Part shown: positions 1,303-55,606 of the stretch, piece after piece
Position numbering within the stretch: the first letter of the stretch is position 1
Layout of the letters: every line of letters starts with the position of its first letter
Virus record (IMG/VR): IMGVR_UViG_3300010429_002123
Length of the DNA stretch: 64,000 nt
DNA from: a virus
Lineage: Duplodnaviria > Caudoviricetes
Strand: one strand, 5' to 3'
Position numbers and translations under genes: made by a program
Notes under the pieces: generated by a model
The model's input: the letters and a program-made list of their open reading frames with translations, nothing else
The model's database searches: none
What the model was told of the DNA's origin: nothing

Positions 1303-1815
1303 ATGTTAAATCAAAACGGAAAGCAGGCTGTGGAGGAAATAATAAGGATTTTAAGAGAGACTGGTGAGGGACTGGAGACCCCTCACCAACAGATACTCAT
1401 TAAGCAGGCCGAAAGACTCGAAACTATGCTCCCGGCCATGATAAGACCTATGCCCCCGCAAAAAGAGTTGCTTGCGAAGCGTTTTCCTGAGGCAGAACAC
1501 AAGACGAGAAAAGGTGCTCGTGGGAAACAGCTCACCTATGTAGAAACTGTAAATTACATAGACAGGTTAAATGAAATATTCGGCCTGCACTGGAGCTGGG
1601 AACTGACTGAGCAGGGTGCTGACGAAGTAGGTGTGTGGAGTCGTGGAAGGCTCACTATCGAGATAGACGGGAAAACGGTAGTTAAAGAGGCATACGGCGG
1701 GAACGACAAAAATGGAGAAATCGGGGACGCCCTGAAAGGTGCTTCTTCTGACGCCCTCAAAAAAGCCTGTTCACTGCTTGGTATGGGTCTTTACATGTAT
1801 AGAGATAAAAAGTAA
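1303..1815 (+). CDS. Rad52/Rad22-family (Sak-like) ssDNA annealing protein
   Basis: R-x-G-x-x-G-x-x-LTYV...IDRLNEIFG..WS and GDALKGASSDALKKACSLLGMGLYMY motifs. Confidence 0.85.
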   Translation: MLNQNGKQAVEEIIRILRETGEGLETPHQQILIKQAERLETMLPAMIRPMPPQKELLAKRFPEAEHKTRKGARGKQLTYVETVNYIDRLNEIFGLHWSWELTEQGADEVGVWSRGRLTIEIDGKTVVKEAYGGNDKNGEIGDALKGASSDALKKACSLLGMGLYMYRDKK

Positions 1816-8199: not shown

Positions 8200-8201
8200 A
8201 G

Positions 8202-8345
8202 ACATCGACGGAAAGTTAAAATACGTGACAAATCCAGTCACTGTCTCGGAGTTAACTTCTTTTTAGAAGTTTCTGAGACAAGGCTTAGAAAGTTTTCAGT
8301 GAGTCAGCCACTTAAAGAAAACGAGTAATTAAGCCAATCTAGCTG
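8202..8345 (+). ncRNA. conserved structured RNA scaffold fused to mini CRISPR array 1 (tracr/omegaRNA-like)
   Basis: Homologous to 9071-9204, 13558-13690 and 46505-46636(-); stems GTGAC/GTCAC, TGTCTCGGA/TCTGAGACA, AACTTC/GAAGTT, GGCTTA/TAAGCC covary between copies. Confidence 0.8.
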
Positions 8346-8510
8346 GTTTCCGAGGAAACATGGTTAGAGGGAAAGACGATAGGGGTGTTTTTGTCAACTT
8401 TTCCGAAGCTCAGTTTCTTAGGGAACATGTTTAGATGGAAAGTACGCCTCATACCTTTCACCTCGACTTCTCTTGAAAGTGTTTCTAAGGAAACATGGTT
8501 AGTTGAAAAG
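8346..8510 (+). CRISPR. mini CRISPR array 1 (3 repeats, spacers 37 and 38 bp)
   Basis: 30-bp repeats at 8346, 8413, 8481 (GTTTCCGAGGAAACATGGTTAGAGGGAAAG and variants). Confidence 0.9.
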
Positions 8511-8548: not shown

Positions 8549-9088
8549 ATGAAAAGAGAAGAGAACGGAAAAATAAAGAAAAAACACGTGCCTGCTAAAG
8601 TATTCCCTCCAGGAGAGTTCCTTAAGGAAGAACTGGAAGAGAGAAACTGGACAAAGGAAGAACTCTCTCAAAAAACAGGGATACCCCAGCAGGTAATAGA
8701 AGACATATTAAATCACAAAGGTGAAGTGACAGAGGAAATAGCTTCTCTTCTCGCTAGAGCTCTGGACGAACCGGAAGATTACTGGGTATGTTTGAGCAGA
8801 AACTACTTCGAGAGAAAAAAAGTCATTGCCCTCGAAGAGTCAAATCCTTGTAGATGCGGGGGAAGGGTCAGACATACAGGAAAGGTATATTATACCGCCC
8901 CGGCTTATTATGAAATGAAGTGTGATGAGTGCGGGAGAATAAAAGACATAAAAGAGGCTCCCAGTATTCCTGTAATAGAGTGTACAGAGGAAGAACTCTT
9001 CAAAAGACATCCTGAGGTGAGAGAACTTTATGAGAAGTTTCCTCATTTACGAAGAAGTGAGTCCGAAAAGACATCGACGGAAAGTTAA
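8549..9088 (+). CDS. HigA-like XRE HTH protein with C-terminal zinc ribbon
   Basis: FPPGEFLKEELEERNWTKEELSQKTGI...LARAL..PEDYW is the HigA pattern; CRCGG...CDECG; C-terminus TSTES* lies inside scaffold 2. Confidence 0.75.
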   Translation: MKREENGKIKKKHVPAKVFPPGEFLKEELEERNWTKEELSQKTGIPQQVIEDILNHKGEVTEEIASLLARALDEPEDYWVCLSRNYFERKKVIALEESNPCRCGGRVRHTGKVYYTAPAYYEMKCDECGRIKDIKEAPSIPVIECTEEELFKRHPEVRELYEKFPHLRRSESEKTSTES

Positions 9089-9204
9089 AATAAACGACAA
9101 ATCCAGTCGTAGACTCGAAGTTAACTTCTTTTTAGAGGTTTTTGAGTCGAGGGCTTAGAAATCTTTCAGTTTATAGAAAGCAAGTAATCAAGCCCGGCTA
9201 ACGG
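9071..9204 (+). ncRNA. conserved structured RNA scaffold fused to mini CRISPR array 2
   Basis: ACGAC-AAATCCA-GTCGT; GACTCGAA/TTTGAGTC; GGGCTT/AAGCCC; 3' CCGGCTAAC pairs with GTTAGTTGG of repeat 1. Confidence 0.8.
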
Positions 9205-9347
9205 GTTTCTGAAGAAACATAGTTAGTTGGAAAGTTAATTGGAATACCCATTTCAGACAGTTTCGAGAGCACGGTTTCTGAAGAAACATGATTAGTTGGA
9301 AAGAAAAAGAAGGTCAAGGTTCTGAAGAAACATGATTAGTTGGAAAA
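9205..9347 (+). CRISPR. mini CRISPR array 2 (3 repeats, spacers 39 and 14 bp)
   Basis: Repeats at 9205, 9274, 9318 (GTTTCTGAAGAAACATGATTAGTTGGAAAG). Confidence 0.88.
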
Positions 9348-9392: not shown

Positions 9393-12053
9393 ATGAGCAG
9401 AAAAAAAGTATCCCTGGAGGAAACTCTGGCCGCTATTAACAAGAAGTTTGGAAAAGGAACTATAATGCCTGTGAGTGAAGCAAAAAGCCTGAATTACATC
9501 AGAATTCCCACAGGTATTTTTAGTTTAGACGTTGCTGTAGGGGCTGGTTATGGTCTTCCGAGGGGAAGAGTTTCTCTTATAATAGGAGAAAAGTCCACAG
9601 GGAAAACGACTATATGCATGAAGACGATTGCTACCTGGCAGAAATACTGTAGATTCTGCAATACGGAGATAAAAGACCGTATAATAGAAATAGAACCGAA
9701 GGAAGAAATAAAACCCGAAGTAAAAGAAGAGGTAAAACCTGCAGTAAAGGGAGGAAAAAACACCCCTGAACCGGTAAAAGGGAAAAAACCTCCCGAGCCA
9801 CCAAAAGGAAAGAAACCTCCCGAACCTCCGAAAGAAGAGAAAAAGAAAGTTCAAAAAATTGTCACTAAGTGTGAATGTGGTAAAAACAAACGTATGGTCT
9901 GTGTGTATCTCGACGGAGAGGGAACTTATGACCCTCTATGGGCAAGTCATCATGGCGTAGACAATACCTCAGTAATAATGTTACAGCCTGAGTTTGCGGA
10001 ACAGTGTGCTGACGTTGTAGAAGAGCTGATACGCACTGGGGATGTTGACTTAATCATCGTTGACAGTATCGCAGCCCTCGTACCTGCCTCTGAAATAGAA
10101 GCTAGTGCAGAAGACCAGCAAATGGGAACCCACGCGAAAATGGTGAATAGAATGTGCCTGGAAGGAAACCAAAGGGTAATAAACGAGCTTACTGGAGAAC
10201 TTATCCGAGTTAAAGACTTAAAGGCTGGAGTTACGCTTACTTCCGTGGGAGAAGACAATAAAATAAGAAAGAACGTGGTTACAGAAGTGTTTAAAACAGG
10301 TAGAAAAGACTGCCTGAGGATAAACAACACACTGGTTCTCACAAAAGACCACTTAGTTTTTACAGACTCTGGCTGGGTAGAGGCTGGTAAACTCACCCGT
10401 AATCATCTTATCGCAAGACCAAAAAACCTTCCAGTTTTTACCACAGGAACCTCGGACTTTTTTAATGTGGAAGCCCGTCTCCTCGGTTATGCCCTCTCTG
10501 CCGAAGGTAACCCGGAAGCCTGGAAACGCGGGGGTAAGCACGAAGTAGAAGATAAAAGAAGAGCCATAGAGTTCTTTGGAGAAAGACTTCCTCTTCTGAC
10601 CTTTGAAGACTACAGTCAAATACTTTCTTTAGACCTGGGAAAAGCTCCGCATTTGAGAAGGTATAGAGACTTGTTTATAAAACATAACCTGAGTAAAGAG
10701 ACTCTCGGGATTATTCCTAAGGCCATCTTTGGGGGAGATATAACCCAGATAAAAAACTTTATAGAAGCCATGTGGACAGGAGGAGGTCTGGTCAACCCCA
10801 CAGAAAAAACGTTGACTTACTTAACCGTTTCTGAGACCCTGGCTTATCAGTTAAGACATCTCTTATTAAGGTTTGGAGTATGGGCGTCACTCGGTGTAAG
10901 CGAGTTCTCCTCAAGGTCTTACCCCTATGGGAAAAGATACCTTCTTACCGTAGCGGGTAAACAAAATGTGAAGAGATTTTATGAAGCCTTCTCTCTCTTA
11001 GACGAGAAGCAAGACAGGTTAAAAAGAATAGTAGAAAGATGGAAAAATCAATCTGAATTACCTATTCCCGCACAGGAGCAATGCACTAAAAAAGAGGTGG
11101 AAACCTTAATAGCTCTCTTAAAGAAGAAGAAAATATCTGGAACAGATGTTTGTTGCTTCATAGGTCTTTGCCGGAATGCTTACCCGGAGCACAAGGTCTA
11201 CACCTATGAGATATTAAAAAACCTCGTAGTTAAGTTTGGTCTTCAGGAGTTAATTCCTATGCTTGAATCTGACCTCTGGTACGAGCCTATTATAAATATA
11301 GAAGAATATGGGACTGAAGAGGTCTATGACATTTCCATGAAAAATGAAGAAAACTTCCTGTGCGAAGAGTATGTGGTGCATAACTGCAGGGCTCTCAGTT
11401 CCTCTATGAACAGTCTTGGGATAGAGTGCGAGACAAAACCCCATGTAATTCTGATTAACCAGAAGAGAGACAAGCTGGGCTTTTTTGGAGGTACTACCAT
11501 ACCAGGTGGAAAAGGCCAGTGGTACACAGCAGGCATAATAGTAGACATGAGAACCCCCCATAAAATCGGAGAAAACGGAAAGTTAGACCCAAAACAAGAC
11601 AGCAGTGACTATTACAAGACCGTAGAAACAGTAGGCTCCCTTCATAACTTTGAGGTTGTGAAAAACAAGACTTATATCCCTTTTAAACGTGGGTCTTTCC
11701 GCATCTACGGCCAGACTTGTAATAATGAAAGCCTTTCTGTCAGAAAGGGAGAAATAAACACGGAAGAACAAATATTACGTGTAGGTTTAAATACTGGAGC
11801 TATTTTGCTGAGAGGAACCTCCTATGTATTTCAAGACGTTATCTTTGGGATAGGAAAAGAGAAGGCTCTACAGGCGTTAAAAAGTAACCCGGAGTTACAG
11901 GAGAAAATAAAGGTTGTTATTCTGGAAAATATAAAAAGTGAGCTGGCTTCAAGCAGGGATTTATTTGAGGCTAACCAGGACATGCCCGACGGAATAGACT
12001 CCCTGTCTTTTGAACTTATGTCTGAAGAGCCCACAGAAGACAGTGGAGAGTGA
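9393..12053 (+). CDS. recA: RecA recombinase with intein and Zn/Pro-rich insertion
   Basis: INKKFGKGTI, IPTGIFSLDVAVG, GEKSTGKTT (Walker A), LIIVDSIAAL, INQKRDK, TIPGGKG. Confidence 0.93.
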   Translation: MSRKKVSLEETLAAINKKFGKGTIMPVSEAKSLNYIRIPTGIFSLDVAVGAGYGLPRGRVSLIIGEKSTGKTTICMKTIATWQKYCRFCNTEIKDRIIEIEPKEEIKPEVKEEVKPAVKGGKNTPEPVKGKKPPEPPKGKKPPEPPKEEKKKVQKIVTKCECGKNKRMVCVYLDGEGTYDPLWASHHGVDNTSVIMLQPEFAEQCADVVEELIRTGDVDLIIVDSIAALVPASEIEASAEDQQMGTHAKMVNRMCLEGNQRVINELTGELIRVKDLKAGVTLTSVGEDNKIRKNVVTEVFKTGRKDCLRINNTLVLTKDHLVFTDSGWVEAGKLTRNHLIARPKNLPVFTTGTSDFFNVEARLLGYALSAEGNPEAWKRGGKHEVEDKRRAIEFFGERLPLLTFEDYSQILSLDLGKAPHLRRYRDLFIKHNLSKETLGIIPKAIFGGDITQIKNFIEAMWTGGGLVNPTEKTLTYLTVSETLAYQLRHLLLRFGVWASLGVSEFSSRSYPYGKRYLLTVAGKQNVKRFYEAFSLLDEKQDRLKRIVERWKNQSELPIPAQEQCTKKEVETLIALLKKKKISGTDVCCFIGLCRNAYPEHKVYTYEILKNLVVKFGLQELIPMLESDLWYEPIINIEEYGTEEVYDISMKNEENFLCEEYVVHNCRALSSSMNSLGIECETKPHVILINQKRDKLGFFGGTTIPGGKGQWYTAGIIVDMRTPHKIGENGKLDPKQDSSDYYKTVETVGSLHNFEVVKNKTYIPFKRGSFRIYGQTCNNESLSVRKGEINTEEQILRVGLNTGAILLRGTSYVFQDVIFGIGKEKALQALKSNPELQEKIKVVILENIKSELASSRDLFEANQDMPDGIDSLSFELMSEEPTEDSGE
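10155..11384 (+). mobile_element. intein in RecA (410 aa, degenerate LAGLIDADG-type endonuclease)
   Basis: CLEGNQRV...LTKDHLV...YVVHN followed by Cys; exteins rejoin as VNRM/CRAL. Confidence 0.9.
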
Positions 12054-13203: not shown

Positions 13204-13575
13204 ATGGGGCTTATCGTTAGAGAAGACCTGGTTCAGGACTTAAAAAACACAGAACAGTTATTGGACAAGACCCTTTCTTTAGCCCGAACGCTTATACATA
13301 AGTATGAACAACCGGGTATGGGGCTGGGGGAAGAACTCCCTTACGAGTTCTGGAACTTGCTCAAAGAAGTAGACTGGACAACGACGTGGTTTCTTGAACA
13401 CGCCTTTGACAAAGAGGAAACCCCTCTTTACACAGACGGCTTACTTCTTTTTGAATCCTGTTGTCTGGGACTGGAAAAACATATGAGAGATACGAAAAAA
13501 CTCTGTGGGATATTTAAGATGATGGCCACACTCTTTCGAGATAAGACCTTAACTATAACATCGACAGAAAGTTAA
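13204..13575 (+). CDS. hypothetical protein
   Basis: 123-aa ORF; C-terminal TSTES* supplied by scaffold 3. Confidence 0.55.
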   Translation: MGLIVREDLVQDLKNTEQLLDKTLSLARTLIHKYEQPGMGLGEELPYEFWNLLKEVDWTTTWFLEHAFDKEETPLYTDGLLLFESCCLGLEKHMRDTKKLCGIFKMMATLFRDKTLTITSTES

Positions 13576-13690
13576 AATAAGCGACAAATCCAGTCGCAGT
13601 CCTGAAGTTAAGTCTTTTTTAAGACTTTTTGGGACAGGGCTTAGAAAACTTTCAGTTTATAGAAAGTGAGTAATCAAGCCAAACTAACGG
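13558..13690 (+). ncRNA. conserved structured RNA scaffold fused to mini CRISPR array 3
   Basis: GCGAC-AAATCCA-GTCGC; GTCCTGAA/TTTGGGAC; AAGTCT/AGACTT (compensatory versus AACTTC/GAAGTT); ACTTTC/GAAAGT. Confidence 0.8.
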
Positions 13691-13955
13691 GTTTCTAAAG
13701 GAACATGGTTAGATGGAAAGTATGTGGAGACCGTGCACTACATCGACCGGCTTAACGTTTCTAAAGAAACATGGTTAGATGGAAAGCATGGGCAACTTAC
13801 ATTAGTAGCTTCATTGGCAACAAGGTTTCTAAAGAAACATGGTTAGATGGAAAGGTTACTATGTTTCTAAGGAAACATGGTTAGTTGGAAAGATTCGAAA
13901 TAGTCTATATCTACTTTTTTATTGTGTTTTTGAATAAACATGGTTAGTTGGAAAG
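13691..13955 (+). CRISPR. mini CRISPR array 3 (5 repeats, spacers 36, 38, 8, 33 bp)
   Basis: Repeats at 13691, 13757, 13825, 13863, 13926; terminal repeat degenerate. Confidence 0.93.
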
Positions 13956-18998: not shown

Positions 18999-20663
18999 GT
19001 GCAGATATTACAGACAAGACAGGTCATAGCATTTGATACAGAATACGTAGACCGTGACTTTCCTAACGTTGATGTAGTAGGAATGTCTCTTGCATGGAAA
19101 GAGAACGGCCACGTAGACGGTTGTTACATACCTGTTGGGCACACAACGGGGGAGTCACAGTTACCTATAGAACTCGTTGCCGGGGCTATGAAACCCATAC
19201 TAGAAGACCCCGAAAAATTGATAGTCATGCACAACATGAAAGCTGACATAAAAGCGTCCTGGCTTATGGGTATTTACATAGCGGACGCTCCTTACTGGAA
19301 CGCCCTTCTGAACGAGGGGATTACTATTCCTTACAAAAAAGCCATAAGAGAAACCCACTTATGGGACACCATGCTTGCCTCCTGGATACTCGAACCGGAA
19401 AGAGAAATTTCTCATAAGTTAAAAAAGCTTGTAAAAGAACTTCTCGGGTATGAGATGCAGGAGCTGACAGACTTTGCTCCCAGAGAAAAAGCCTTGTTTA
19501 CAAAAACAGGAAAACCAGTTAAGTTAAAAGCTAACGAAGTTGCCCCTGATGAAACGAAGGTTCAGATATTAAAAAAGAGCAAAAAAGCTCTTCTGAGAGT
19601 AGATAAAGTCCCCATAGCCTCCCTCGGCAGGTACGCCTGGGACGACGCCGTGTGGACTTATAAACTGTATGAATACTTCAAAAACATCATAGAAACCTCA
19701 AATGCGGGGAAGGATAACAAGATTTTCTATGAAGTTCAACTCCCCTTTGCTGTAGTGCTTACGGAAATGGAAATCATAGGCTCTCCCATAGACGTCGCTT
19801 TACTGAAAGACATGGAAACAAGAGCAAAAGCAGAACTGGTAACGATAGAGAATAGGATTTACGAGTTGGCAGGAAAAACCTTTAACATAAAGAGCACAAA
19901 ACAGTTAAATGAGGTGCTTTTTGACACTCTCGGCTTAAAGCCTGAGGGTGACATGAACAAAAAAGGGGAATACTGCACAGACAAAGACGTAATGAGAAAA
20001 TATAAGAGAGAGTATGATGCCTTTAAGGCAGGTCTGCAGAAAAAGGGGGCTGAATGTGAAATAGCCTACTGGATGCTAAAACAGAGAGAGCTTACTAAAC
20101 TCATCGGGACATATCTGGAAGGTCTCGTCCTGTTTGCCAAAAACGGCAGAATTCATACCAGTTTCAACCAGCTTTCAAAAGATGAGAGAACCGGAACAAA
20201 AACCGGGAGGTTGAGTTGCGTGGCTAAAGATACGTTACTCTATGTAAAGACCGGAAGAGGCCGGGGAAAACTTCAGGAAGTTGAAATATCCAAACTTGAC
20301 TTGACCATACCCACGAGAATTATGACATGTGAGGGAAGATATAAACCCATAAACAAACTGATTTTCAAGGGTGAGGACGACCTCTACGAAATAACCACAA
20401 CTGCCGGGTGGAGACTGGTATGCACAAAAGAGCATCAAATCCTAACCCCTCACGGATGGTGGGTATCTGTTGGAGGCTTATTCGTAGGGCAAGAGGTCTA
20501 CGGAAACAAGCATAGGTGCACTCCTACAAACTGCACAGGTTACAAAAGAAGCTTCATAACCGCTATACGTCCCTTTGGAAGAGGGGAAGTATGGGACATA
20601 GAGGTAGCAGAAGACCAGTCTTACTACGCCGGAGGCTTTTTAAACCATAACAGTTCGAATCCT
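18999..20663 (+). CDS. polA: family A DNA polymerase, exon 1 (3'-5' exonuclease, thumb, intein 1)
   Basis: AFDTEY, MHNMKAD, DTMLASW, YAWDDA, FNIKSTKQL, TKTGRLS|intein|SSNP. Confidence 0.92.
20217..20651 (+). mobile_element. mini-intein 1 in DNA polymerase (145 aa)
   Basis: CVAKDT...CTKEHQI...FLNHN followed by Ser. Confidence 0.9.
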
Positions 20664-21382
20664 CAAATGGGGCTACTTTCCGGTGACGGAAAGTTAGAAT
20701 CTCTGTTAACTCGGTGGAATCTAAGTTTCTCTCCAGAGGAATATGACAATACCGAGCCGAGCTTCGCAGGAATGCGAAGAAGGTGTAACGACTACCTTGA
20801 TGTAATCTAGAACAGATAGAAAAGGCACGAACACAGAGTATCTTAGGTTGATTACCAAGATTGACAAAATATTTCTCCCGTCTATAATAAGAGCGAGGTG
20901 AAGAAAAATGAGAAATGATTGGACTAAGTCTGAAATAGCGTGGTTCAGAGAAAACTACCCAAAACACGGGTTGCATTACTGTTCTGATATTTTAAAAAGA
21001 ACCACAAGTGCCATTCTAATGAAGGCACATTTATTAGGTTTAAAAAGACGAGGAAAAGGAAGAAAAGACAGGGTGTATACATACGACGGTTACATTACTG
21101 TTTCCTCTGAGGGTGATAGATACCAAGTGCACAGAAGAGTAATGGAAAACCATATAGGAAGGAAACTGTCAACAAAAGAGTTAGTTCATCACAAAGACGG
21201 AAACAGAAAAAACAATTCCATTGAAAACCTAGAAATTTTGTCAAGAAGTGAACACATGAAAATTCACTACCCGCAGAGAATGAGAAATTCAAAAGGTCAG
21301 TTCGCCTAAGATAAAGATATAGTCTGAACTTGCGGGAAACCGCAAGAATTTCAGGATAAAGAGCCTGAAAGGTAACAAAATG
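20664..21382 (+). mobile_element. group I intron 1 in polA
   Basis: Exon ends in U (CCT), intron ends in G; removal restores SSNP|NLQNI; R-like GTAACGACTA and S-like AAGATATAGTC elements. Confidence 0.9.
20908..21309 (+). CDS. intron-encoded HNH homing endonuclease
   Basis: VHRRVME...VHHKDGNRKNNSIENL...EH..IH; internal promoter TTGACA..TATAAT at 20861-20888. Confidence 0.9.
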   Translation: MRNDWTKSEIAWFRENYPKHGLHYCSDILKRTTSAILMKAHLLGLKRRGKGRKDRVYTYDGYITVSSEGDRYQVHRRVMENHIGRKLSTKELVHHKDGNRKNNSIENLEILSRSEHMKIHYPQRMRNSKGQFA

Positions 21383-21664
21383 AATTTGCAGAACATCTCA
21401 CATAAGTCAGACTATAAGGTAAGGAAAGCCTTTAGTTCTTCCGGGGAAGAGGGCTGGAAATGGCTGAGACTGGATTACTCACAACTGGAGTTAAGAGTGG
21501 GAACTCACTTCAGCAAAGACCCGGAGATGATGAAAGTCTACATGAACGATGGAGACATTCACAGCACCACGGCAAAAGGAAGTTTTAATCTAGACTGTGA
21601 GGCCAGCGAAGTCAAGGCAAAATATCCCGGTTTTCGGGACAAAGCAAAAGTCGTCAACTTCGGT
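21383..21664 (+). CDS. polA: family A DNA polymerase, exon 2 (motifs A and B)
   Basis: NLQNI, DYSQLELR (motif A), RDKAKVVNFG (motif B). Confidence 0.92.
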
Positions 21665-22443
21665 ATGGTAAAAAATGCCGAAGCGGGGGAAGATGTAATC
21701 CCCATTAAACCTGCTCAAAACGGGGGAATCCGAAACATAGGCCAAAATCAGCTAAGTTGTGGGCTATCCCGTGCTACTCTTAAGGACAAGCGTAGTGTAT
21801 CGACTTTGCTTACTCGGTGTAGGGTAAGCATAAATAAACCGTCTGTTCTCTACTAATTAGAGAATAAATCAATCGAGTTTATTTACACGGCAGGCAAAAT
21901 GTGCTAAAGTTAATATAAAGGAGTGGTATGGATGACTGACGGACAGAAACTTTGTAAAAAATGTAAACTACCTTTTATACTAACAGGAAATAATCAACAA
22001 TATTGTCTTTTTTGCAAAGAGGACAGAGCAAGGGAGAGAGGGAGACTTCGTTACAAAAATACCCGCGTAACCCCCGTAAAAAAGGAAAGATTGGTTGGGA
22101 AAAATCACCCGGGGTTTAAAACGGGCGTAGGTCGTAGTTACTATTGTAAACTCGCCTTCTCAACATATGGGAAAATTTGCTGTCTCTGTGGGGGGTTACA
22201 GAACTTATGTGTTCACCACAAAGACGAAAACAGGTTTAATAATGAGGTTGAGAACTTAGAGGTTATCTGCAGAAGATGTCATGCTAAAAAGCACAATCTT
22301 CATAAGTCTTTACCAAAAGGGAATCGGTTGTCAGAGTGCAAAAAAGAGCAAGTAAAAACTTTTAAGAGGGACGAAAACGGAAAATTTATTAAAAAGCACA
22401 TTTAAAGGTATAGTCACACTGTATAGAAATTTACAGAAAAAGG
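21665..22443 (+). mobile_element. group I intron 2 in polA
   Basis: P1 CTTCGGT/GCCGAAG with U.G at the splice site; terminal G; removal restores NFG|IFYGMG; GTATCGACT and GGTATAGTC elements. Confidence 0.9.
21923..22405 (+). CDS. intron-encoded HNH endonuclease with zinc fingers
   Basis: CCLCGG..LCVHHKDENRFNNEVENLEVICRRCH..KH. Confidence 0.88.
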   Translation: MVWMTDGQKLCKKCKLPFILTGNNQQYCLFCKEDRARERGRLRYKNTRVTPVKKERLVGKNHPGFKTGVGRSYYCKLAFSTYGKICCLCGGLQNLCVHHKDENRFNNEVENLEVICRRCHAKKHNLHKSLPKGNRLSECKKEQVKTFKRDENGKFIKKHI

Positions 22444-24930
22444 ATTTTTTACGGAATGGGACCAAGTTCTCTTGCAGAAACCATAAACAAAGAACTTGAC
22501 GACCCAAGAGACTTTTTAACGGAGGAAGAAGCTAAAAAAGCTATTTCAAACTTTATGGCTACTTACAAAGGCGTTTCACGTTATATTGAAAAATATAAAG
22601 ACATAGCCAGAGAAGTCGGGGTTGTAAAAACCCTGACAGGAAGAGCTCGCCCCTTACCCGCAGCGATGGTTAAGGCTCCCTGGAAAATAGCCGACCCGAA
22701 GGAGAGAAAAAAAGCTATTGAGGAAAAAGGACACGCCGAAAGGGCTGCGGTAAACTGCTTCGACGAAGAAACAGAGGTGCTTTCCCAAAGAGGCTGGCTT
22801 TCTTACAAGAACTTAACTGCCTCAGATGTGTTAGCCACAATAACGGGGGAAGGTGTTTTAGAATGGGACACTCTAATAGCTGTCAGTATGTTCCCGGGCT
22901 ATGATGAACCATGCATAGAGTTCTCTCACCCGGAAATAAGTGCCCTTACAACCAAAAATCACAGGTGGCTTGTATATGACAGAGTAGAAGCCAAAAACTT
23001 TTTTGTAACTACTGAAAATCTTTGTGCCCGGCACGAGATATTAAAAACTGCTACAAACCCACAGAAAGAAGCAGGTATTTCAGACATGGAACTTCTGAAA
23101 CACCCCCTTTCTCTGGAGTTTCTACTAAATCTGTCCCAAAGACAGTGCAGACTTCTTTTAGAAACCCTGATAGGAACAGGGTCTACTTCAATAAGCCCTG
23201 ACCTCTACCAGATACTGTGCTTTTTATCTGGGAAGAGCTATGAACTCTCCTTTAGAAACCTGTCTTCATACGCTGGATACACTCCCGGAAAGGACAGAGT
23301 TTATCTCCTCCCTGAGCACAAAAAAGAGAAAACAGTCTCTTTTGTCTGGTGCCCTACTGTAAAAAACGGGACGGTTGTGGTCAGAAGAAAGGGCACGGTT
23401 TATATCACCGGTCAAAGCCCCATTCAGGGGTGTCTCCCATCTTCCGCTCGAATTCTAACCCTTGAGGGATACAAGACTATAGACAACTTGATAAAGAGTT
23501 ATCCCGGAGAGAGACTGCAGGTATGGACGGGTTTTAACTGGAAACCAGCAAAAGTTCTCCCTATGGGTAAGGCTCCACTCATGAAAGTGACTTTTAAAAA
23601 CGGCTATAGTGTAAAGTGTGACAACCGTCACAACTTTAAAGTCCTTTCCGACAAACTGGAGTGGAAAAATATCTTGTCTCTTAAAGAGGGGGATATGGTC
23701 GCCACTCCTTACGGAGAGCAACACTTCGGGCAATACAACGCGAGAAACCTGGACATCTACAGGGGTAGAAATATTTGTGAACGGAGGTTTGACTATAATC
23801 TTCTCTTTTACCTCTCAGGTTTTCTGCTTTCGAGGGGAGAAATCATAGATGAGGGTGAGAAAACTCACATAAAGATTAGATTTACAACTTCTCTTCTTTC
23901 TAGTCGGGTCATAACCCTTGAAGAAAAAGTAAGAAACGTGCTTGTTAAATCTCTCTTAGAGAATGGAATCCTCTTTACCTGTGAGAGCAGGCGAAGAGAC
24001 GTGGGGACATCCCCCCATTCAGTTGTTGACCTTATAATAACTGACCAGCAGTTGCTTAAAGTTTTCTTAAGAGAGTTTGACGTCAGGAGTGGAAAAGTCC
24101 CTGAGCACATTTATAAGAGTGTCCACCCCTTACGCAGGCTGTTCTTAAAAGGTCTCGTGGAGGGAGGAGGACAACTCGACGGGAATAAAGTAATTCTTAC
24201 TTTTTCTGAACGTAATCTGGCTGAAGAGATAGCCTTTCTCTTAACCTCCGGGGGTTTTGTCTTCGAGGTAAAGAACTCTCCTAAGCTATCTCTATACCAG
24301 ATAACAATACAGCACAAACACGCCTTCCTGGCCTGGATTGGAATTTTCTCCGGCTCTTTCTACAACAGGACGAAGAAAAAATGTCCCGATGTATACATAA
24401 AAGAGTTTTTTGAAAAATTCACCCGAAACGCCAGAGGAAGGGTTACTCCCGGAATAACCCGCCAGTCCTACAGATACAAAGAACTGTTAGAGAAAAGACC
24501 AGAAAAATGCCATTTACATTTCCTGTACAAAATGGCAAGAGATTTCGGAATTGTCTTTGACGAAAAGTATGACTACCTTATAGTAGATAAAATTGAGTAT
24601 CTCGGTGAGGAACAGGAGATGTACACCCTTTCTGTTGACGACGACTTACATCAATTCGTAGCAGACGGGGTAATAGCCAAGAATAGTGCCGCCGACATAG
24701 TCTCAATAGCTATGAGAAACATTCGCCTGAAGCTCATGGAGACCGGAGACTGGTGGAAAAATTGCCAGCTCTTAATCCAGGTGCACGATGAGCTCAATTT
24801 TTTGATAAAGGAAACAGAGATAGAAAGGTTAGTTCCTCTCATAAAAAGTGAGATGGAAAGTGCGGTTAAGCTAAGAATACCCCTGGTGGTGGATTACCTT
24901 GTTGGGGTGAACTGGTTTGAGTGCAAGTAG
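22444..24930 (+). CDS. polA: family A DNA polymerase, exon 3 (inteins 2 and 3, motif C)
   Basis: IFYGMG, TLTGRAR, ERAAVN|intein|SPIQG|intein|SAADI, QVHDEL. Confidence 0.92.
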   Translation: MFYGMGPSSLAETINKELDDPRDFLTEEEAKKAISNFMATYKGVSRYIEKYKDIAREVGVVKTLTGRARPLPAAMVKAPWKIADPKERKKAIEEKGHAERAAVNCFDEETEVLSQRGWLSYKNLTASDVLATITGEGVLEWDTLIAVSMFPGYDEPCIEFSHPEISALTTKNHRWLVYDRVEAKNFFVTTENLCARHEILKTATNPQKEAGISDMELLKHPLSLEFLLNLSQRQCRLLLETLIGTGSTSISPDLYQILCFLSGKSYELSFRNLSSYAGYTPGKDRVYLLPEHKKEKTVSFVWCPTVKNGTVVVRRKGTVYITGQSPIQGCLPSSARILTLEGYKTIDNLIKSYPGERLQVWTGFNWKPAKVLPMGKAPLMKVTFKNGYSVKCDNRHNFKVLSDKLEWKNILSLKEGDMVATPYGEQHFGQYNARNLDIYRGRNICERRFDYNLLFYLSGFLLSRGEIIDEGEKTHIKIRFTTSLLSSRVITLEEKVRNVLVKSLLENGILFTCESRRRDVGTSPHSVVDLIITDQQLLKVFLREFDVRSGKVPEHIYKSVHPLRRLFLKGLVEGGGQLDGNKVILTFSERNLAEEIAFLLTSGGFVFEVKNSPKLSLYQITIQHKHAFLAWIGIFSGSFYNRTKKKCPDVYIKEFFEKFTRNARGRVTPGITRQSYRYKELLEKRPEKCHLHFLYKMARDFGIVFDEKYDYLIVDKIEYLGEEQEMYTLSVDDDLHQFVADGVIAKNSAADIVSIAMRNIRLKLMETGDWWKNCQLLIQVHDELNFLIKETEIERLVPLIKSEMESAVKLRIPLVVDYLVGVNWFECK
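22756..23415 (+). mobile_element. intein 2 in DNA polymerase (220 aa, ends Gly-Gln)
   Basis: CFDEETEVL...TTKNHRW...VWCPTV..GT...YITGQ followed by Ser. Confidence 0.85.
23431..24684 (+). mobile_element. intein 3 in DNA polymerase (418 aa, LAGLIDADG-like)
   Basis: CLPSSARIL...CDNRHNF...LKGLVEGGG...GVIAKN followed by Ser. Confidence 0.88.
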
Positions 24931-25503: not shown

Positions 25504-25785
25504 TGAAAGAGGTAGTCAAACTCCAGTCCGTTTCTTTTGTAGCAAAAGGAAGAGTAATTTGTGTGGGTGACGCTCCCGGAGCTTATAAAATTCAAATACT
25601 ACCTCCCCCACTGAATATACTCAGAGCACTGGGCAACATGTTTTTCAGTGCGGGGGGAATAAACATGTGGCCTTACATGCCAATACCCTTTCTCTTTTGT
25701 GAACTTCTGGGTTTTCCTAGAGAGCATCTGAAGTTACTGCACGCCGGTCTCGCCAGAGAAAAAGCCTGTGTCCTTACGGGAGACA

Positions 25786-25862
25786 CTGAAAAGGATTTTC
25801 GTTATCACGAAAAGGAGTCTCGTTGCCACGAAAAGGATTTTCGTGATAACGAAAAGGAGGAG
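25786..25862 (+). promoter_or_regulatory. tandem 21-nt GGA-loop hairpin repeat ending in the SD
   Basis: CACGAAAA-GGA-TTTTCGTG-type units; last unit is AAAAGGAGG before the ATG at 25867. Confidence 0.75.
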
Positions 25863-25866
25863 AACT

Positions 25867-26388
25867 ATGTTTTCAGAACTTGAAGGGGCACTTTCAGAAC
25901 TTGAATTTTACTCGGAAGAAGGCAAAATAAAAGGCTCAGCTTTAAAGGCGGGGAGAATCAATGCCAATAATAGAATCTACCCGGAAGAAGTAGTAAGGGA
26001 GGCTGTTAACAAGGCCAGAGAAAAGGGGGGTATCCCTGTGGTCTTTGCTGATTCTTCAATTGAAATTCCCACACCCATATCTTCTTTCTGTGGGGTAGTC
26101 ACAGACCTATCCATAGACGAGGGGTCTAACCTTATATTCGAGGCGAGCATTTTAGACTCTCCAAAAGGTCACCTACTGGCTGAGTCTTTACGAAGTGGTA
26201 TGTCTTTCACTGCATCTGTAAGCGGTTATGGTAGGGTTGAAGACCTCGATGGCCTAGTTCTTGTATCCGAGGGGTATGAACTAGAAGCCGTGCACCTTAC
26301 TCCCACGCGAGGGACACAGGTGCGAAAGCTGACAGAATTAGAAAAGAAACTGCTGGAAGAAAAAGCCTGTTTGTTCTACAGCGAGTAA
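25867..26388 (+). CDS. prohead protease-like protein
   Basis: INANNRIYPEEV, ILDSPKGHLL, SVSGYG resemble T4 gp21-like maturation proteases. Confidence 0.6.
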   Translation: MFSELEGALSELEFYSEEGKIKGSALKAGRINANNRIYPEEVVREAVNKAREKGGIPVVFADSSIEIPTPISSFCGVVTDLSIDEGSNLIFEASILDSPKGHLLAESLRSGMSFTASVSGYGRVEDLDGLVLVSEGYELEAVHLTPTRGTQVRKLTELEKKLLEEKACLFYSE

Positions 26389-27387: not shown

Positions 27388-30300
27388 ATGCAAGTAAACG
27401 GATATTTCAGATTAAAGAAGGACCACCCCCTCGTCCCAGAATTCAAAAAAGACTGTGTCCTTCCAAACCCTGAGTATTTAAACAACTTAAAGATGGGAAT
27501 ATCTACAAAGGGTCTTTCCCCCACAGACTTACTCTACGAGCAGGAAGGAGACGAAATTCTCTTTCCCAGAGGAATGGCCAACCGGCTAAAAGGAACAGAA
27601 GACATCAGGGACTCCATGTCTTACGGTAAGGCCGTAAACTTCAAAGAAAGAATAACCCTTCGACCAGGTCAAAAATCTTTTTATGAAAAGTTTGTAAAGG
27701 GTGTTACTGACCTTTATGGTGCCAGTGCTCAGGCCGGGTGCGGACAAGGAAAATGTCAGACACTTTCTACTCCTGTCCTTACGCCAGAGGGGTTCAAAAC
27801 TCTTGGAAACATTCTTCCCGGTGACATGGTAATAGGCCGGGACGGAAAACCCACGAGGGTGTTGCAGACTTTCAGAAACGGAGAAAAAGACTGCTTCAGA
27901 GTAACCTTTAGTGACGGAAGTTTCGTAGACTGTGATGATGACCAGCTATTTCAGCTAAAGAATTCGGAAGCTCCTGTCACTCTTAAGAAAATACGGAACA
28001 GTCCCCCGGAAAAATTGGAAGTCCCTTTGTGTGAACCTGTAGACTTACCGGAAAAAGAGCAGGTGTTCTCTCCTTACTTACTTGGACTTTTGCTCTCAGG
28101 AGGGGCTTTTAAAGAGGGAAAACTCTATCTGTATGACAAGAATGAGCAAGCTAAAAACACGGCAAAAAGTGCCCTTTTAAAAACCCACAAATTAACAGGT
28201 CTTCCGCTGGGAAACAGCAGAACTTTGATATTTGAAAGATTAAAAAATGTTTCGGAGGAACTTGACAAACTCCTCCAAGATTCCCTGTCTTCGCCGGAGC
28301 AACTCAAGAGTGTAGGAGGCTCTTCTTCTAAAATACCTTACAATTACTTATTCGGGAGTAAAAGCCAGAGAAAAGCTCTTCTTCAGGGTGCTCTCGACAT
28401 GGGAGGAAGGGGAAAAGCAAATGTCTGGGACTTCAAAACACAGTCAAGAACCCTGGCAAGAGGGTTAACCTTTCTGGTAAGCTCTCTCGGTGGTACTTGC
28501 ACAAGTTTTTCCAGAGAAAAAACCTACCATCTCAGAATTGTCCTTCCTGAGGACTTCTCCTCCCCGGAAGGCTGCGGGGAAACTCCCCATAAAAAAATAA
28601 AAACAATAGAGCCCATAGGAAAGAAAGAAGTAGGATGTCTATTGGTAGACAATAAAGACCATCTTTATTTAGTAACTGAAACCTGTACAGTAATACACAA
28701 TACAGTGGTGTGTCTAAAAGTAATAGCGTCCCTGCAGAAAACAGCTCTGGTAATTGTGCATAAGACCTTTCTTGTAAACCAGTGGATAGAACGCATACAG
28801 GAATTCTATAATATAGAAGATAAAGACATAGGAATACTCTCAGGAGATGACATAGACTGGGCAGACAAAAAGATAAGTGTGGCCTTAGTACAAACACTCC
28901 TGGCTAAAGACCTCCCAAAAGAGTTCTATAACTACTATGGAACAATCTGTGTTGACGAGGAGCACAGGTTCGGGGCAGGAACCTTCAGAACAGTGATATG
29001 GAGATTTCCCGCAAGATACCGCCTGGGGGTCACGGCAACGCCCACCAGAAACGACTGTCAGGAAAAGGTATTCTTTACACACATAGGAAAAATAGTCTCT
29101 GTAATGTCTGACAGCAGAAAACAGCAGGTGGACGTCCACATGGTAAAAACAAATATTCCTCCCATTACTAACGAGAGACCCTTCTATGACTTCAGAAAAA
29201 AGATAAATCTCACTAAGGTTGTATCCTTCTTAATAGAATGCGAGTCTCGAAACCTTCAAATACTCAACTACCTCGTCAAGGCTGCGGAGAAAGGCCGAAA
29301 AATATTAGTATTAAGTGATAGAAGAGGACATCTGGAAACATTATCTTCTTTATTAAAAGCCTATTGTAAAGCAAATGAACACAAAAACATAAACATTTCT
29401 CAAGGGTATTACATGGGAGGAATGAAGCAGGAAGACTTAGACATTTCTACAACAAAAGACGTGATATTCGGCACTTTTGCAATGGCCTGTATAAGCGAAG
29501 AACAGGACTTTATTGACTACGTGACAGGGGAAACACAGAAATTTAAAAACCTTGTCGGAAAAAGCGTAAACTGCATTACCCATTCAGGAAAGATAACACA
29601 GTCGGGAAAAGTCATTTCTTCAGGTAAAAAAGAGTGCTTTAAACTGACACATTCCTTTGGGGACGTCTTAGCTACGGCAGACCACAAAGTCTTAACCGAA
29701 AAAGGCTGGGAAGAAGTCGCTAAGCTATCTTTACAGAGCCATCTGAGCCTCCCCAAAAAATTGGAAATAGAACAGGTCATAGACACTCCTATAAAAACCA
29801 GCGAACTCTGGCTATTAGGCTGTTTCATAGGTGACGGAAGCATGAGCCAGTATAAAAAAGGGGTCTTGTCGTTCATTTCCGCAGACGAAGACGTCCTAAG
29901 AAACGTGAAAAGCATTTTAGAAACACATAACATGACCCTTAAAAAAGTGCGAAAATACCGTTACAGAGTCTGTGGGGAGGGAAAAAACGGAAAGGGAGTA
30001 AAAACATGGTTAAGACATCAGATAGAAAACCTCGGACTCGGGGTCACGGCACGCAGTAAAGAAATCCCTCAGCCCTTTCTACTTCTCCCGGAACAGAAAA
30101 TAGGAAGTCTGCTCGCTGGACTGTTCGACACAGACGGGTGCGTAACTAAAAGAGGAGAGATACTTTTCTCTTCATCTTCTCAAAAATTAGTAACACAAAT
30201 TAAGTTTTTACTCTGGAGGCTGGGTATTTTTTCAACCCTCTACCCGTCGGCGGAGAATATGATGTTTGTCCTAAGCATCTCCCGGAATTTTAGCGAGCAG

Positions 30301-30915
30301 TTTTTAAAAACTGTCCCGTTAAAACTAAGAAGAAGAAAACAAAGAATAGAAGACTCTATGAGTAAAGGAAGAAGAGTCACAAAAAGCCCTACCAACTATA
30401 TCCCAACGTATTTTACAAAACTTCTTTTTTCTGAACTGAAAAGAAGAAAAATCCGAAAAACGGACATAGTGAGCCTGCTGAAAGAACAAAAAATGTCCTT
30501 TTCATGGGTTAACCACAACAAGGCAGCGGAAAAACAGAGCTTTAGCTTTCTTATTAACTTCTTTCAAATACCGGAGTTAGCAAAAGCCTTAGACTATATC
30601 TGGGCAAAAGTACAAAGCATTGAAAACATGGGGGAACAAAAAGTAGTAGATATGTCAGTGCCTGCTGATAACTCTTTTTTAGCGGGCGAAGCTCTCGTAC
30701 ATAACTGTGAGGGCTTAGATATACCCTCTATAGATACGGTAATCCTCGCCACACCTAAGGGAAGTGTCCAGCAGGCAGTCGGGAGAATAGTCCGGGAAAA
30801 AGCAGATAAAAAAGTATCTAAGGTAGTAGACATGATAGATGAGATAAGTATCTGTAAAGCCCTTTCTTTTAAGAGACTGAAGGAGTATAAAAAGCTAAAG
30901 TATGACATACACTAA
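27388..30915 (+). CDS. SF2 DNA helicase (XPB/UvsW-like) with two inteins
   Basis: LRPGQ, GCGQGK|intein|T, DEEH, GVTATPTRND, MA|intein|CEGLDIPSID, QQAVGRIVR. Confidence 0.92.
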   Translation: MQVNGYFRLKKDHPLVPEFKKDCVLPNPEYLNNLKMGISTKGLSPTDLLYEQEGDEILFPRGMANRLKGTEDIRDSMSYGKAVNFKERITLRPGQKSFYEKFVKGVTDLYGASAQAGCGQGKCQTLSTPVLTPEGFKTLGNILPGDMVIGRDGKPTRVLQTFRNGEKDCFRVTFSDGSFVDCDDDQLFQLKNSEAPVTLKKIRNSPPEKLEVPLCEPVDLPEKEQVFSPYLLGLLLSGGAFKEGKLYLYDKNEQAKNTAKSALLKTHKLTGLPLGNSRTLIFERLKNVSEELDKLLQDSLSSPEQLKSVGGSSSKIPYNYLFGSKSQRKALLQGALDMGGRGKANVWDFKTQSRTLARGLTFLVSSLGGTCTSFSREKTYHLRIVLPEDFSSPEGCGETPHKKIKTIEPIGKKEVGCLLVDNKDHLYLVTETCTVIHNTVVCLKVIASLQKTALVIVHKTFLVNQWIERIQEFYNIEDKDIGILSGDDIDWADKKISVALVQTLLAKDLPKEFYNYYGTICVDEEHRFGAGTFRTVIWRFPARYRLGVTATPTRNDCQEKVFFTHIGKIVSVMSDSRKQQVDVHMVKTNIPPITNERPFYDFRKKINLTKVVSFLIECESRNLQILNYLVKAAEKGRKILVLSDRRGHLETLSSLLKAYCKANEHKNINISQGYYMGGMKQEDLDISTTKDVIFGTFAMACISEEQDFIDYVTGETQKFKNLVGKSVNCITHSGKITQSGKVISSGKKECFKLTHSFGDVLATADHKVLTEKGWEEVAKLSLQSHLSLPKKLEIEQVIDTPIKTSELWLLGCFIGDGSMSQYKKGVLSFISADEDVLRNVKSILETHNMTLKKVRKYRYRVCGEGKNGKGVKTWLRHQIENLGLGVTARSKEIPQPFLLLPEQKIGSLLAGLFDTDGCVTKRGEILFSSSSQKLVTQIKFLLWRLGIFSTLYPSAENMMFVLSISRNFSEQFLKTVPLKLRRRKQRIEDSMSKGRRVTKSPTNYIPTYFTKLLFSELKRRKIRKTDIVSLLKEQKMSFSWVNHNKAAEKQSFSFLINFFQIPELAKALDYIWAKVQSIENMGEQKVVDMSVPADNSFLAGEALVHNCEGLDIPSIDTVILATPKGSVQQAVGRIVREKADKKVSKVVDMIDEISICKALSFKRLKEYKKLKYDIH
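27754..28701 (+). mobile_element. intein 1 in helicase Walker A (316 aa)
   Basis: CQTLSTPVLTPEG...LQGALDMGG...TVIHN followed by Thr. Confidence 0.88.
29488..30705 (+). mobile_element. intein 2 in helicase (406 aa, LAGLIDADG)
   Basis: CISEEQ...ATADHKV...LLGCFIGDG...LAGLFDTDG...LVHN followed by Cys. Confidence 0.92.
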
Positions 30916-35467: not shown

Positions 35468-36577
35468 TAACCCCTAGTAGGTGTGAAAGTTTCTGCTTGA
35501 CTTTACACAAAGAAAGATTGTATACTATTGGAAAAAGGAGACAAGAAAATGAAAACCTGTAAAATGTGCAAAACAGAACTCAAAAAAGAGAAAAATACTT
35601 TTTGCAGTCTGAGTTGCTCAACAAAGTATAGAAATCTTTCTAAGTGTATAAGAGTCAAGAAAGAATGTAAGATGTGTGGCAAAGTGTTAGAACTAACCGA
35701 ATCTTCTTTAAAAGGGAAATTAAATGTCTTTTGTAGTAATGAGTGCAGGCAGGCTTTCTTGAAAAGAAATAACAGGTATGAACCCTGTGAAAACTGTGGC
35801 AAAATTATTGAGATAAACTGGAAAAGAAACAAAGTAAAAACTCCTTTTTGCTCTGTAAGTTGCCATAATGAAAAGGTGAGTAATAAAGTAGAGACAACAT
35901 GTGCTGGTTGTGGGGGCAAAATGATTACCCACAAGTCTCGACTCAGCTATTACAAGAATGTCTACTGCTCTCAAAATTGTTACACTAAAACTGTTCTTGG
36001 GAAGAGAGGAAATCTTCAGGAAAAGTATGAGTTGGTAAGACATAGATTAATGGATTCAGACAATTTCCGACTCTGGAGAATAGGAGTTCTCTCTAAAAAG
36101 CACAGATGTGAGGTGTGTGGGAGTAAAAAGGGTCTTGTGGTTCACCATGTTATCTCGCTCTTTACTCTAGTTTCCACTTACAATAGAGAGTTTTCCCTTT
36201 CAAAAGAAAGTATCGAAAAAGTTATAAGCTCGAAGGAGTTTAATGACGTGTCAAACGGTAAAGTTCTGTGTAAATCATGCCACGTATTAGAACACCGAAA
36301 AATAGTCCCTTATGGAAGTAATTCCATAGAGCAAATCCCGTTAATTGCTGGAAACCCGTTAGAGCCTTCAGTACCTATAAACGGTGACAATCTGAAGGAT
36401 TCGGCAACCAGCAGCGAAGCCTTGAAAAAGGAACGTTCAACGACTAACCCGGAAGGGTGTAGGGTCTAAGTAGACTCGAAAAACGGGACTTCCTAGACGA
36501 AAAGGAAGATGATATAGTCTGGACTCATACGAAAGTATGAGAGGTTACACGGAAACGGTGTAATTGCAACACAATCG
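35468..36577 (+). mobile_element. group I intron splitting Walker B of the AAA ATPase
   Basis: Removal restores WVD|EIEKG; exon ends in U, intron ends in G; P AATTGCTGGAAA, Q AACCAGCAG, R GTTCAACGACTA, S GATATAGTCT. Confidence 0.9.
35549..36469 (+). CDS. intron-encoded HNH endonuclease with repeated CxxC...FCS..C zinc fingers
   Basis: CEVCGS...VVHHV...NGKVLCKSCH; 3' end overlaps the intron core. Confidence 0.85.
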   Translation: MKTCKMCKTELKKEKNTFCSLSCSTKYRNLSKCIRVKKECKMCGKVLELTESSLKGKLNVFCSNECRQAFLKRNNRYEPCENCGKIIEINWKRNKVKTPFCSVSCHNEKVSNKVETTCAGCGGKMITHKSRLSYYKNVYCSQNCYTKTVLGKRGNLQEKYELVRHRLMDSDNFRLWRIGVLSKKHRCEVCGSKKGLVVHHVISLFTLVSTYNREFSLSKESIEKVISSKEFNDVSNGKVLCKSCHVLEHRKIVPYGSNSIEQIPLIAGNPLEPSVPINGDNLKDSATSSEALKKERSTTNPEGCRV

Positions 36578-49378: not shown

Positions 49379-49453
49379 TAACCCACAATAAAGAGATTAC
49401 CGTGCTTTTCGCTTTATCTTCAAAACCGAGCAAGTGCCTGCATCCAAAGAAAA

Positions 49454-49811
49454 TATAGACTGCATATCGTGCAGTCTATAAAAACCCGTAAGTAGCGGGG
49501 CTAACCTTGCTTTTTTCTCCCCCATTTTCAAAAATAGACTGCACGCCGTGCAGTCTATAAGAATGGCGGTATATATAGGTTTTCCTTCTTTTTAGGGCTT
49601 TTTTAGCCTATTATAGACTGCATATCGTGCAGTCTATAATGCCATTATAGACTGCATATCGTGCAGTCTATATGTCAAAATAGACTGCATATCGTGCAGT
49701 CTATAAAAAGTAAAAAGTAAAAAATGTTTTGTAAAAATTAGTAAAGAGAAACCGTTACGGTGTAAGGAGAAGAACTCTCTTTTTATAAAAATATAGACTG
49801 CACGCTGTGCA
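49454..49811. repeat. palindromic iteron-like repeats TATAGACTGCA-N5-TGCAGTCTATA (5 full, 1 partial); candidate replication origin
   Basis: Copies at 49454, 49534, 49612, 49646, 49680, 49792 in an ORF-free AT-rich interval. Confidence 0.85.
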
Positions 49812-50030
49812 CCCTAAGGATAATTAAAAAGAATAAATGAAAAAGATTCTAAAAAGAAGCAATGATAATTGAATAAAACATTGATTCAAGAATAAGAACA
49901 CATTGTGAGAGGGGGGAAAATTTTTTTCGGGAACCCGATACCCACCCCGTGCCCCCGCATAAGGGTAGGGGAGCAACTCGCGTCAAATGCTGGAGGTGCT
50001 GACAAAGTTAACTTATTTTTACAAAAAGTA

Positions 50031-50894: not shown

Positions 50895-50973
50895 ATAAAA
50901 AGTGAAAGAAACAAAAAGGATTTTTGTTGACACAAAAAGGATTTTTGTTGACACAAAAAGGAGGAGAACGTAT

Positions 50974-54688: not shown

Positions 54689-55606
54689 ATGAGTCTTAAA
54701 GAACTGCTTTGCCTGCGGAAGTTGCATTCCTCAGAAGAAGGCACCCTGAGAGTAAGGTTTTTTAAATACCTTGAAAGTCTGAATAAAAAACCACGAACCC
54801 GCTCAATAAATGAACTGCACCCCTCGGAAATCGCAAAAGGTTTTTGTCCGAGAGAGTGGTGTATTCTTCAGTCTCACATAGACCTGTATAACTTTCACGT
54901 GCCTCCGAAAACCCGAATAGCCTTTGACGTAGGCTCAGCTCTGCATGAAATGATGCAGAACTACCTGGCAGACATGGGTGTTCTAATAGGTTACTACAGA
55001 TGCAAAGAGTGCAGGCATGTTACACAGAGTATAGGGAAAAAACCTGGGGTGTGCTCAAAATGTGACTGCCACGTTTTCGAATATAAAGAAATCACAATAG
55101 TAAACAAGCTCTGGAACATCTTTGGTCACTGTGATGGGCTGGTTGAAATGGACGGAAAACTTTACCTGTTTGAGTTTAAGACCAGCAGGTCTGACGTGTT
55201 AAGAGGCATGGTAAAACCTCTGGACTGGCATGTAAACCAGGCCAGAATTTACATGTGGTCTTATAACATTATGCGTCAGGAACAGAGAGAGCTTTATGAA
55301 CAAAATACCTCAGACATCACCGAGGAAACCTATTACTTCTATAGAAGACCTATCGAAGGAATGATTATCTGGTATTTAGACAAAAATTACTCGGACATTG
55401 TAGACTTCAATGGTTCAATCATTCGTTTTGATATGGAGGCCGAAACTTATATAGAAAGTTTAAAAGTCCAGATATTAAAATGTCTTGACTTTATAAAAAC
55501 AGGAGTTCTTCCCGAACCCTGTTGCAGTAAGAGAAATCTGGCAGAAGGTTTAGCTTTTATGGGTTCTTCCGGTAGCAAATGCCGGGTAAGTGATTACTGT
55601 GTTTAG
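54689..55606 (+). CDS. Cas4-like / PD-(D/E)XK exonuclease
   Basis: HPSE..FCPR, G.ALHE, GHCDG, FEFKT, QARIYM, C-terminal cysteines. Confidence 0.8.
   Translation: MSLKELLCLRKLHSSEEGTLRVRFFKYLESLNKKPRTRSINELHPSEIAKGFCPREWCILQSHIDLYNFHVPPKTRIAFDVGSALHEMMQNYLADMGVLIGYYRCKECRHVTQSIGKKPGVCSKCDCHVFEYKEITIVNKLWNIFGHCDGLVEMDGKLYLFEFKTSRSDVLRGMVKPLDWHVNQARIYMWSYNIMRQEQRELYEQNTSDITEETYYFYRRPIEGMIIWYLDKNYSDIVDFNGSIIRFDMEAETYIESLKVQILKCLDFIKTGVLPEPCCSKRNLAEGLAFMGSSGSKCRVSDYCV

Follow-up and report, generated by a model that had tools for sequence, protein, structure and literature searches.

The window analysed here is a stretch of 64,000 nucleotides from the virus record IMGVR_UViG_3300010429_002123 (Duplodnaviria; Caudoviricetes), and forms part of a 233,925-bp contig whose sequence occurs in anaerobic-digester and sludge runs. 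It carries four short CRISPR arrays, and the first spacer of array 3 (13721-13756), located behind the first (13691-13720) of its five repeats, resembles a piece of the phage's own Rad52-like gene. Why would a phage carry a guide that resembles one of its own genes, and to what kind of system does such a guide belong? We read 121 kb of the phage for further arrays, which is around half of its genome (the window plus a second assembly of this phage that overlaps it). The arrays proved to be parts of cassettes, in which a structured RNA of ~135 nt (the scaffold) is fused directly to two to five repeats of 30 nt. The sequences give good grounds to regard these cassettes as part of a phage-encoded CRISPR-associated TnpB system (TranC-like, TnpB-derived and type V-like), in which the spacer would be the guide of one cassette, and on the best reading this system is directed against integrative elements or temperate phages that reside in the same host. 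The self-like spacer would then be a by-product of one gene family that is common to the phage and its targets.

The self-like spacer and its possible sources

The Rad52-like protein P0001 passes the gathering score of its Pfam family (PF04098; 49.9 bits vs 20.3, E 4e-13). The spacer and the homologous site in this gene (Table 1) are identical in 25 of the 36 nucleotides and in 11 of the 12 encoded residues, with His instead of Asn at residue 6. The peptide-level homology is genuine and far above chance, since the BLOSUM62 score of the spacer peptide is 58, whereas 400 shuffles, each run against all six frames, gave a mean of 30.2 (sd 3.2), a maximum of 41 and a best peptide identity of 8/12. 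The nucleotide match is weak by itself, as 25/36 was attained by three of around 400 shuffles. Within the 121 kb, none of the other full-length spacers showed a comparable self-match. The synonymously diverged match to the phage's own gene that had been claimed in the preliminary description is thereby borne out.

It had also been proposed that this divergence protects the phage from self-targeting. As a passive fact this is plausible, considering the three mismatches within the first 12 nucleotides of the guide, but selection on the phage gene finds no support: back-translation of the phage peptide according to phage codon usage yielded a mean identity of 26.6/36 (P(<=25)=0.26). The phage gene is thus without sign of recoding to escape the guide, because random codon choice already yields ~25/36. 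The outlier in G/C content at third codon positions (GC3) is the spacer itself, with 10 of the 12 positions, against three in the phage gene and one to eight in homologs. The phage's own gene would therefore seem to escape by synonymous drift within the family (the three mismatches lying in the seed) and not by recoding.

The search for the spacer in phage contigs that the preliminary description had proposed was run with exact and with degenerate protospacer patterns on viral and metagenome contigs; it returned diverged Rad52-like homologs and no exact source. The only homolog with 12/12 identical residues, P0007 (26/36 nt), is encoded on a contig that also bears genes for a resolvase, DUF669 and Prim-Pol. 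The best nucleotide score, 27/36, was shared by an element with ArdC and RadC genes and a 37-kb temperate phage (terminase, portal, capsid, serine integrase), and an element with ArdC, GmrSD and serine recombinase genes reached 26/36. With homologs on other digester elements matching equally well or better, the phage's own gene appears not to be the relevant match. One of the Rad52 relatives carries the name of Ca. Eremiobacterota, which provides a lead on the host and no more.

A second spacer connects the cassettes to a defined target. It is the scaffold-proximal spacer (L144:15097-15132) in a cassette located 13 kb upstream of the window, and agrees at 36/36 positions with L015:6489-6524, part of an element (L015-L017) with serine recombinase, ArdC, GmrSD and Macro/NADAR genes as well as a Rad52 homolog. 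Apart from this 36-mer, the phage and the element share a 69%-identical piece of Rad52 only. In the wider form of a conflict between mobile elements, the earlier suggestion that the arrays serve inter-phage competition is supported. Given the fact that the matched element carries Rad52, the simplest origin of spacer 13721-13756 would be the sampling, by this system, of a family of elements with Rad52-like genes. The protospacer lies near a weak phage-Rep-O-like gene and its 5' flank ends in GACA. The derivation of a target-adjacent motif (TAM) from protospacer flanks, as had been envisaged, thus provided one flank, from which no TAM is claimed, because a single spacer has a target. SWIM and methyltransferase genes are common to the phage and the elements, which points to one shared host gene pool; a scan with the SWIM family for additional target elements found none. 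Both informative spacers, the Rad52-like one and the one matching L015, are scaffold-proximal. This suggests that only the first spacer receives a scaffold in cis and that copying of cassettes is the route to many guides, although two cases are no proof.

We propose that spacer 13721-13756 derives from an unsampled element, probably an integrative element or a temperate phage, whose Rad52-like gene would be GC3-rich and of the His type. The preliminary description favoured the orthologous gene of a related large phage, with the system otherwise the same. Its broader part, an origin from a Rad52-like homolog carried by another element, stands, and the related large phage is the less likely source, with a limited chance of being right. 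It draws on P0002, a phage-type ortholog with the same N-terminal extension as the phage protein (51% identity over 96%), the His at residue 6, a GC3 of 8/12 and 26/36 identical nucleotides, and on P0005, which is also N-terminally extended and sits on a terminase-bearing contig; moreover, virus-borne mini-arrays are mostly aimed at related viruses (PMC11656645). However, P0002 is known from a 1.2-kb contig of undefined type, P0005 and P0018, which belong to the same tree clade as the phage gene, have Tyr at the site of the His, and both the sole 12/12 match and the sole exact protospacer reside on small elements.

The purpose of the system could also differ. Considering that the matched element carries GmrSD, Macro/NADAR and recombinase genes and is therefore probably integrated, the system might mainly break the host chromosome at integrated elements or remove defence cargo (counter-defence), instead of competing with excised elements. 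This is improbable, as none of the spacers matched core host DNA, although no host genome was available for the comparison, and it departs from the targeting of co-resident elements in purpose and not in mechanism.

Scaffold, cassettes and the proposed effector P0185

The ~135-nt block upstream of the repeats is common to all four arrays of the window, and with six further copies in the overlapping assembly a total of ten cassettes was obtained; among the source-run contigs listed, at least two more arrays were found at phage depth. Sense-strand folding of the scaffold gave z-scores of -3.3 to -5.3 for the four window arrays, and with repeat and spacer included the sense strand scored -3.3 and the antisense strand -1.3. 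Across the ten copies 99% of cells were paired, 15 of the 41 pairs showed two-sided changes, G-U pairs were conserved, and covariation as high was found in none of 500 shuffles, a test that is inflated by the relatedness of the copies and thus indicative only. The block, which had been put forward as an RNA scaffold, therefore looks like one on the evidence of both covariation and strand preference. Its last helix is formed by CUAAC and the GUUAG of the first repeat, enclosing a 5-bp hairpin. Because of this pairing, scaffold, first repeat and first spacer most plausibly constitute one omegaRNA-like single guide with the spacer at the 3' end, as in TnpB and type V systems. Pairing between a CUUUC in the scaffold and the repeat end was rejected, as CUUUC covaries with an internal partner.

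The scaffold had no match in Rfam, phages or plasmids. Scans with a loose version of the scaffold pattern returned chance matches, none of which was confirmed by the RNA model, and a stricter version returned nothing. In an RNA run a short piece resembling the first scaffold hairpin (window 8230-8243) lies between apparent tRNA ends, in some other genome context. Metatranscriptome contigs span cassettes, and are uninformative on strand, ends and level. Many spacers measure 0-25 nt (in L144 arrays and at window 9304-9317 and 13855-13862). The last 14 nt of a 22-nt spacer also occur in window spacer 8443-8480, so that cassettes may have recombined with each other.

Table 1. Positions in the window of the array 3 locus, the Rad52-like gene and the other cassettes.
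Feature	Position	Strand	Details
Array 3	13691..13955	+	30-nt repeats at 13691, 13757, 13825, 13863, 13926; spacers 36, 38, 8, 33 nt
Structured RNA scaffold of array 3	13556..13690	+	three hairpin domains, then anti-repeat CUAAC 13684-13688
First repeat of array 3	within 13691..13720	+	5-bp hairpin and GUUAG 13708-13712, pairing with the anti-repeat
Scaffold-proximal spacer of array 3	13721..13756	+	36 nt, sense strand of Rad52-like gene; GC at 10/12 third positions
Spacer-like site within the phage's Rad52-like gene	1537..1572	+	spacer mismatches at 6, 9, 12, 15, 16, 18, 24, 28, 31, 33, 36
Rad52/Rad22-family single-strand annealing protein gene (P0001)	1303..1815	+	170 aa; Pfam Rad52_Rad22
Cassette, array 1	8200..8510	+	scaffold 8200-8345; repeats 8346, 8413, 8481; spacers 37, 38 nt
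Cassette, array 2	9069..9347	+	scaffold 9069-9204; repeats 9205, 9274, 9318; spacers 39, 14 nt
Cassette, array 4	46343..46639	-	scaffold 46639-46505; repeats from 46504, 46437, 46372; spacers 37, 35 nt
Sigma70-type promoter, array 4	46648..46676	-	TTGACA, 17 nt, extended -10; expected start at scaffold 5' edge

None of the window proteins tested qualified as an effector. The TnpB/Cas12-like gene P0185 (765 residues; L144:6579-8876) is located upstream of the window, ~19.4-21.7 kb from position 1, and its 233,925-bp contig also encodes a window protein. Scaffolds occur just before and just after it: the cassette ahead of the gene has the same promoter layout as array 4, ending at the 5' edge of the scaffold, and the downstream scaffold begins ~60 nt past the stop codon and is followed by two repeats. 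P0185 matched the TnpB model (E 2e-14) and, weakly, the Cas12u4 and Cas12f models (E about 1e-8; for Cas12f 2e-8, with the RuvC part only). A phmmer search of the PDB with P0185 gave no match. The top Foldseek matches of the predicted fold were AsCas12f and ISFba1 TnpB, and LaTranC was matched too; the family profile did not match the LaTranC structure and matched 9j09 weakly. The RuvC triad (D435/E551/D646) is intact, and invariant across 37 homologs. The relatives form a TnpB clade of ~490 residues from Bacillota, Fusobacteriota and their phages, which P0185 exceeds through N- and C-terminal additions; the effector tree contains a long-branch join and is not used to claim a single origin. 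The neighbours of P0185 include neither a transposase nor cas1/cas2, and no cas1/cas2 was seen in the 121 kb.

Two other genes were considered as effector and rejected: the 650-aa gene directly downstream of array 4 (44326-46278, minus strand), which with its double helix-turn-helix is antirepressor-like, and an IscB-like RRXRR-HNH gene (L147:18903-20501), which has a strong phage promoter ahead of it and no scaffold or cassette nearby, IscB moreover using a 5' guide. The gene at 54689-55606 encodes a PD-(D/E)xK-like nuclease with cysteine clusters, Cas4-like by eye and without Pfam match.

The scaffold RNA model weakly matches the 3' ends of related tnpB genes (L228, E 0.002-0.02), with the same order of helices. 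A short array was found downstream of the related viral TnpB gene in 4 of 63 cases, and the three records checked have a single scaffold each. In other viral contigs (L208:5946-6693, L223:5895-6221, L159:5892-6400 and L162:4410-4661), TnpB genes of this clade precede a structured region and a short CRISPR array whose repeats differ. It has been proposed that arrays arise by duplication of omegaRNA ends (PMC10691335), and the gene-scaffold-array pattern in these relatives fits such an origin.

These data also bear on the idea that the cassettes are units of leader and mini-array that feed a class 1 (type I-B/III) Cas system of the host, with P0185 as an unrelated passenger. The 30-nt repeats ending in GAAAG and the 33-40-nt spacers do resemble class 1 dimensions, and the use of host Cas proteins by mini-arrays is a known mode (PMC11656645). 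Nevertheless, we consider this very unlikely. Scans of 185,579 genomes, Joint Genome Institute (JGI) metagenomes and viral contigs recovered no array with this repeat, but single chance matches only, and the source-run contigs bearing the repeat were, among those listed, all at phage depth. The upstream block covaries as RNA and occupies the omegaRNA position behind P0185, and the gene-scaffold-array layout is seen again with related TnpBs. That the guide acts as a regulator of the phage's Rad52 gene through partial pairing, like the nuclease-dead TldR repressors, is scarcely credible even though this site is the best spacer match within the phage, given the intact catalytic triad, the six mismatches among the first 20 nt, the foreign genes that match the spacer equally and the perfect foreign target of another spacer.

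Proposed mechanism and its weak points

In the CRISPR-associated TnpB system that we propose, P0185 would load the guides of the cassettes in cis and in trans, and the resulting ribonucleoprotein would cut double-stranded DNA beside a 5' TAM in competing elements within the same host. Because no cas1/cas2 was found in the 121 kb, spacers are probably acquired via a borrowed host adaptation module (Cas1-Cas2), and the copying of whole cassettes may give many spacers each their own scaffold. The phage would benefit from inter-element competition, as proposed for Cas12r (10.64898/2026.04.20.719267).

Several observations weigh against this view. A target was found for just one of the ~15 full-length spacers, and the exact protospacer of spacer 13721-13756 is absent from the viral and metagenome contigs scanned. 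Three scaffold-proximal spacers measure just 7-9 nt, which makes some of the cassettes appear decayed. All ten scaffolds are copies related to one another, and the anti-repeat helix is nearly invariant and hence has no covariation of its own. Finally, the other half of the genome might contain cas genes or another effector.

Other repeats and regulatory elements accompany the cassettes in the window. Tandem 21-nt repeats run into ribosome-binding sites (25765-25869, 38739-38927, 39577-39702, 41689-41753, 50909-50973 and 55605-55719) and may act in regulation, for instance as operators. A family of strong, nearly identical sigma70-type promoters, AT-rich in the upstream part, occurs at 1205, 4767, 31104, 41623, 42612, 49998 and 50836. 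Six palindromic 33-nt repeats beside HTH_36/DnaD-like genes (49452-49822) may mark a replication origin. A group I intron is present in a split AAA ATPase region, and RecA, DNA polymerase A and a helicase contain inteins (36266-36541, 9393-12053, 18999-24930, 27388-30915).

Comparison with known systems

Judged by its features and not by clade placement, the system would work like the CRISPR-associated TnpBs (TranC/V-U). Shared with these are a TnpB-like RuvC effector, a short downstream array and an omegaRNA-like scaffold (PMC10691335; Jin 2025 as cited in PMC13639567); they lack cas1/cas2 nearby, and neither was seen in the 121 kb of the phage. Phage-borne cases are known (CauTranC9, 10.64898/2026.03.27.714800). 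The TranC RNA is described as split into trans-activating CRISPR RNA (tracrRNA) and CRISPR RNA, whereas scaffold and first repeat are contiguous and paired in cis in the phage. Furthermore, the phage copies the whole unit at least ten times across its genome, and P0185 has 765 residues against ~490 in its own family.

IS200/605/607 TnpBs have a single omegaRNA at the 3' end with a guide from flanking DNA, in contrast to spacers between repeats in at least ten cassettes. For Cas12f (V-F) a strong profile match and 400-700 residues are expected, and P0185 shows neither. Standalone omegaRNAs and omegaRNA arrays (PMC10691335) likewise involve extra scaffold copies distant from the effector and able to act in trans, but the copies of this jumbo phage each carry a CRISPR-type repeat-spacer array and its nuclease is intact. 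Virus-borne mini-arrays (PMC6858448, PMC11656645) are similar as short viral arrays used against other elements; however, these carry copies of the host's repeat and rely on its Cas proteins, whereas the phage has its own effector and no host repeat was found in the genomes and metagenomes scanned. In the literature, of which our coverage is incomplete, no account of fused and dispersed scaffold-array cassettes came to light.

The emergence of CRISPR arrays out of the ends of TnpB omegaRNAs is an open question, and the present locus combines a scaffold, duplicated repeats and a spacer confirmed as foreign. We tentatively suggest, as a reading that is about as open to doubt as to belief, that the jumbo phage preserves a stage, still unsplit, that lies between TnpB and type V CRISPR: natural single guides built of omegaRNA and first repeat, a cassette copied a dozen-fold and one enlarged nuclease acting in trans, still acquiring spacers against co-resident elements. 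The ten natural scaffold variants already reveal the structure of the RNA, and the natural single guide is a lead for tool development. A close parallel is Cas12r of the Thermus Lalka phages (10.64898/2026.04.20.719267), which resembles the present system in its TnpB-derived phage effector, in its ~30-nt repeats, which are degenerate, in spacers that are now and then very short, and in spacers against integrative elements with primase-polymerase genes; it lacks adaptation genes, and none was seen in the 121 kb of the phage. Compared by features, Cas12r needs no tracrRNA and has one array beside the gene, in contrast to the large covarying scaffold in all ten cassettes (10/10) described here. 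The phage would represent a second case, beside Cas12r, of a phage TnpB-CRISPR system directed against integrative elements, with a different RNA design.
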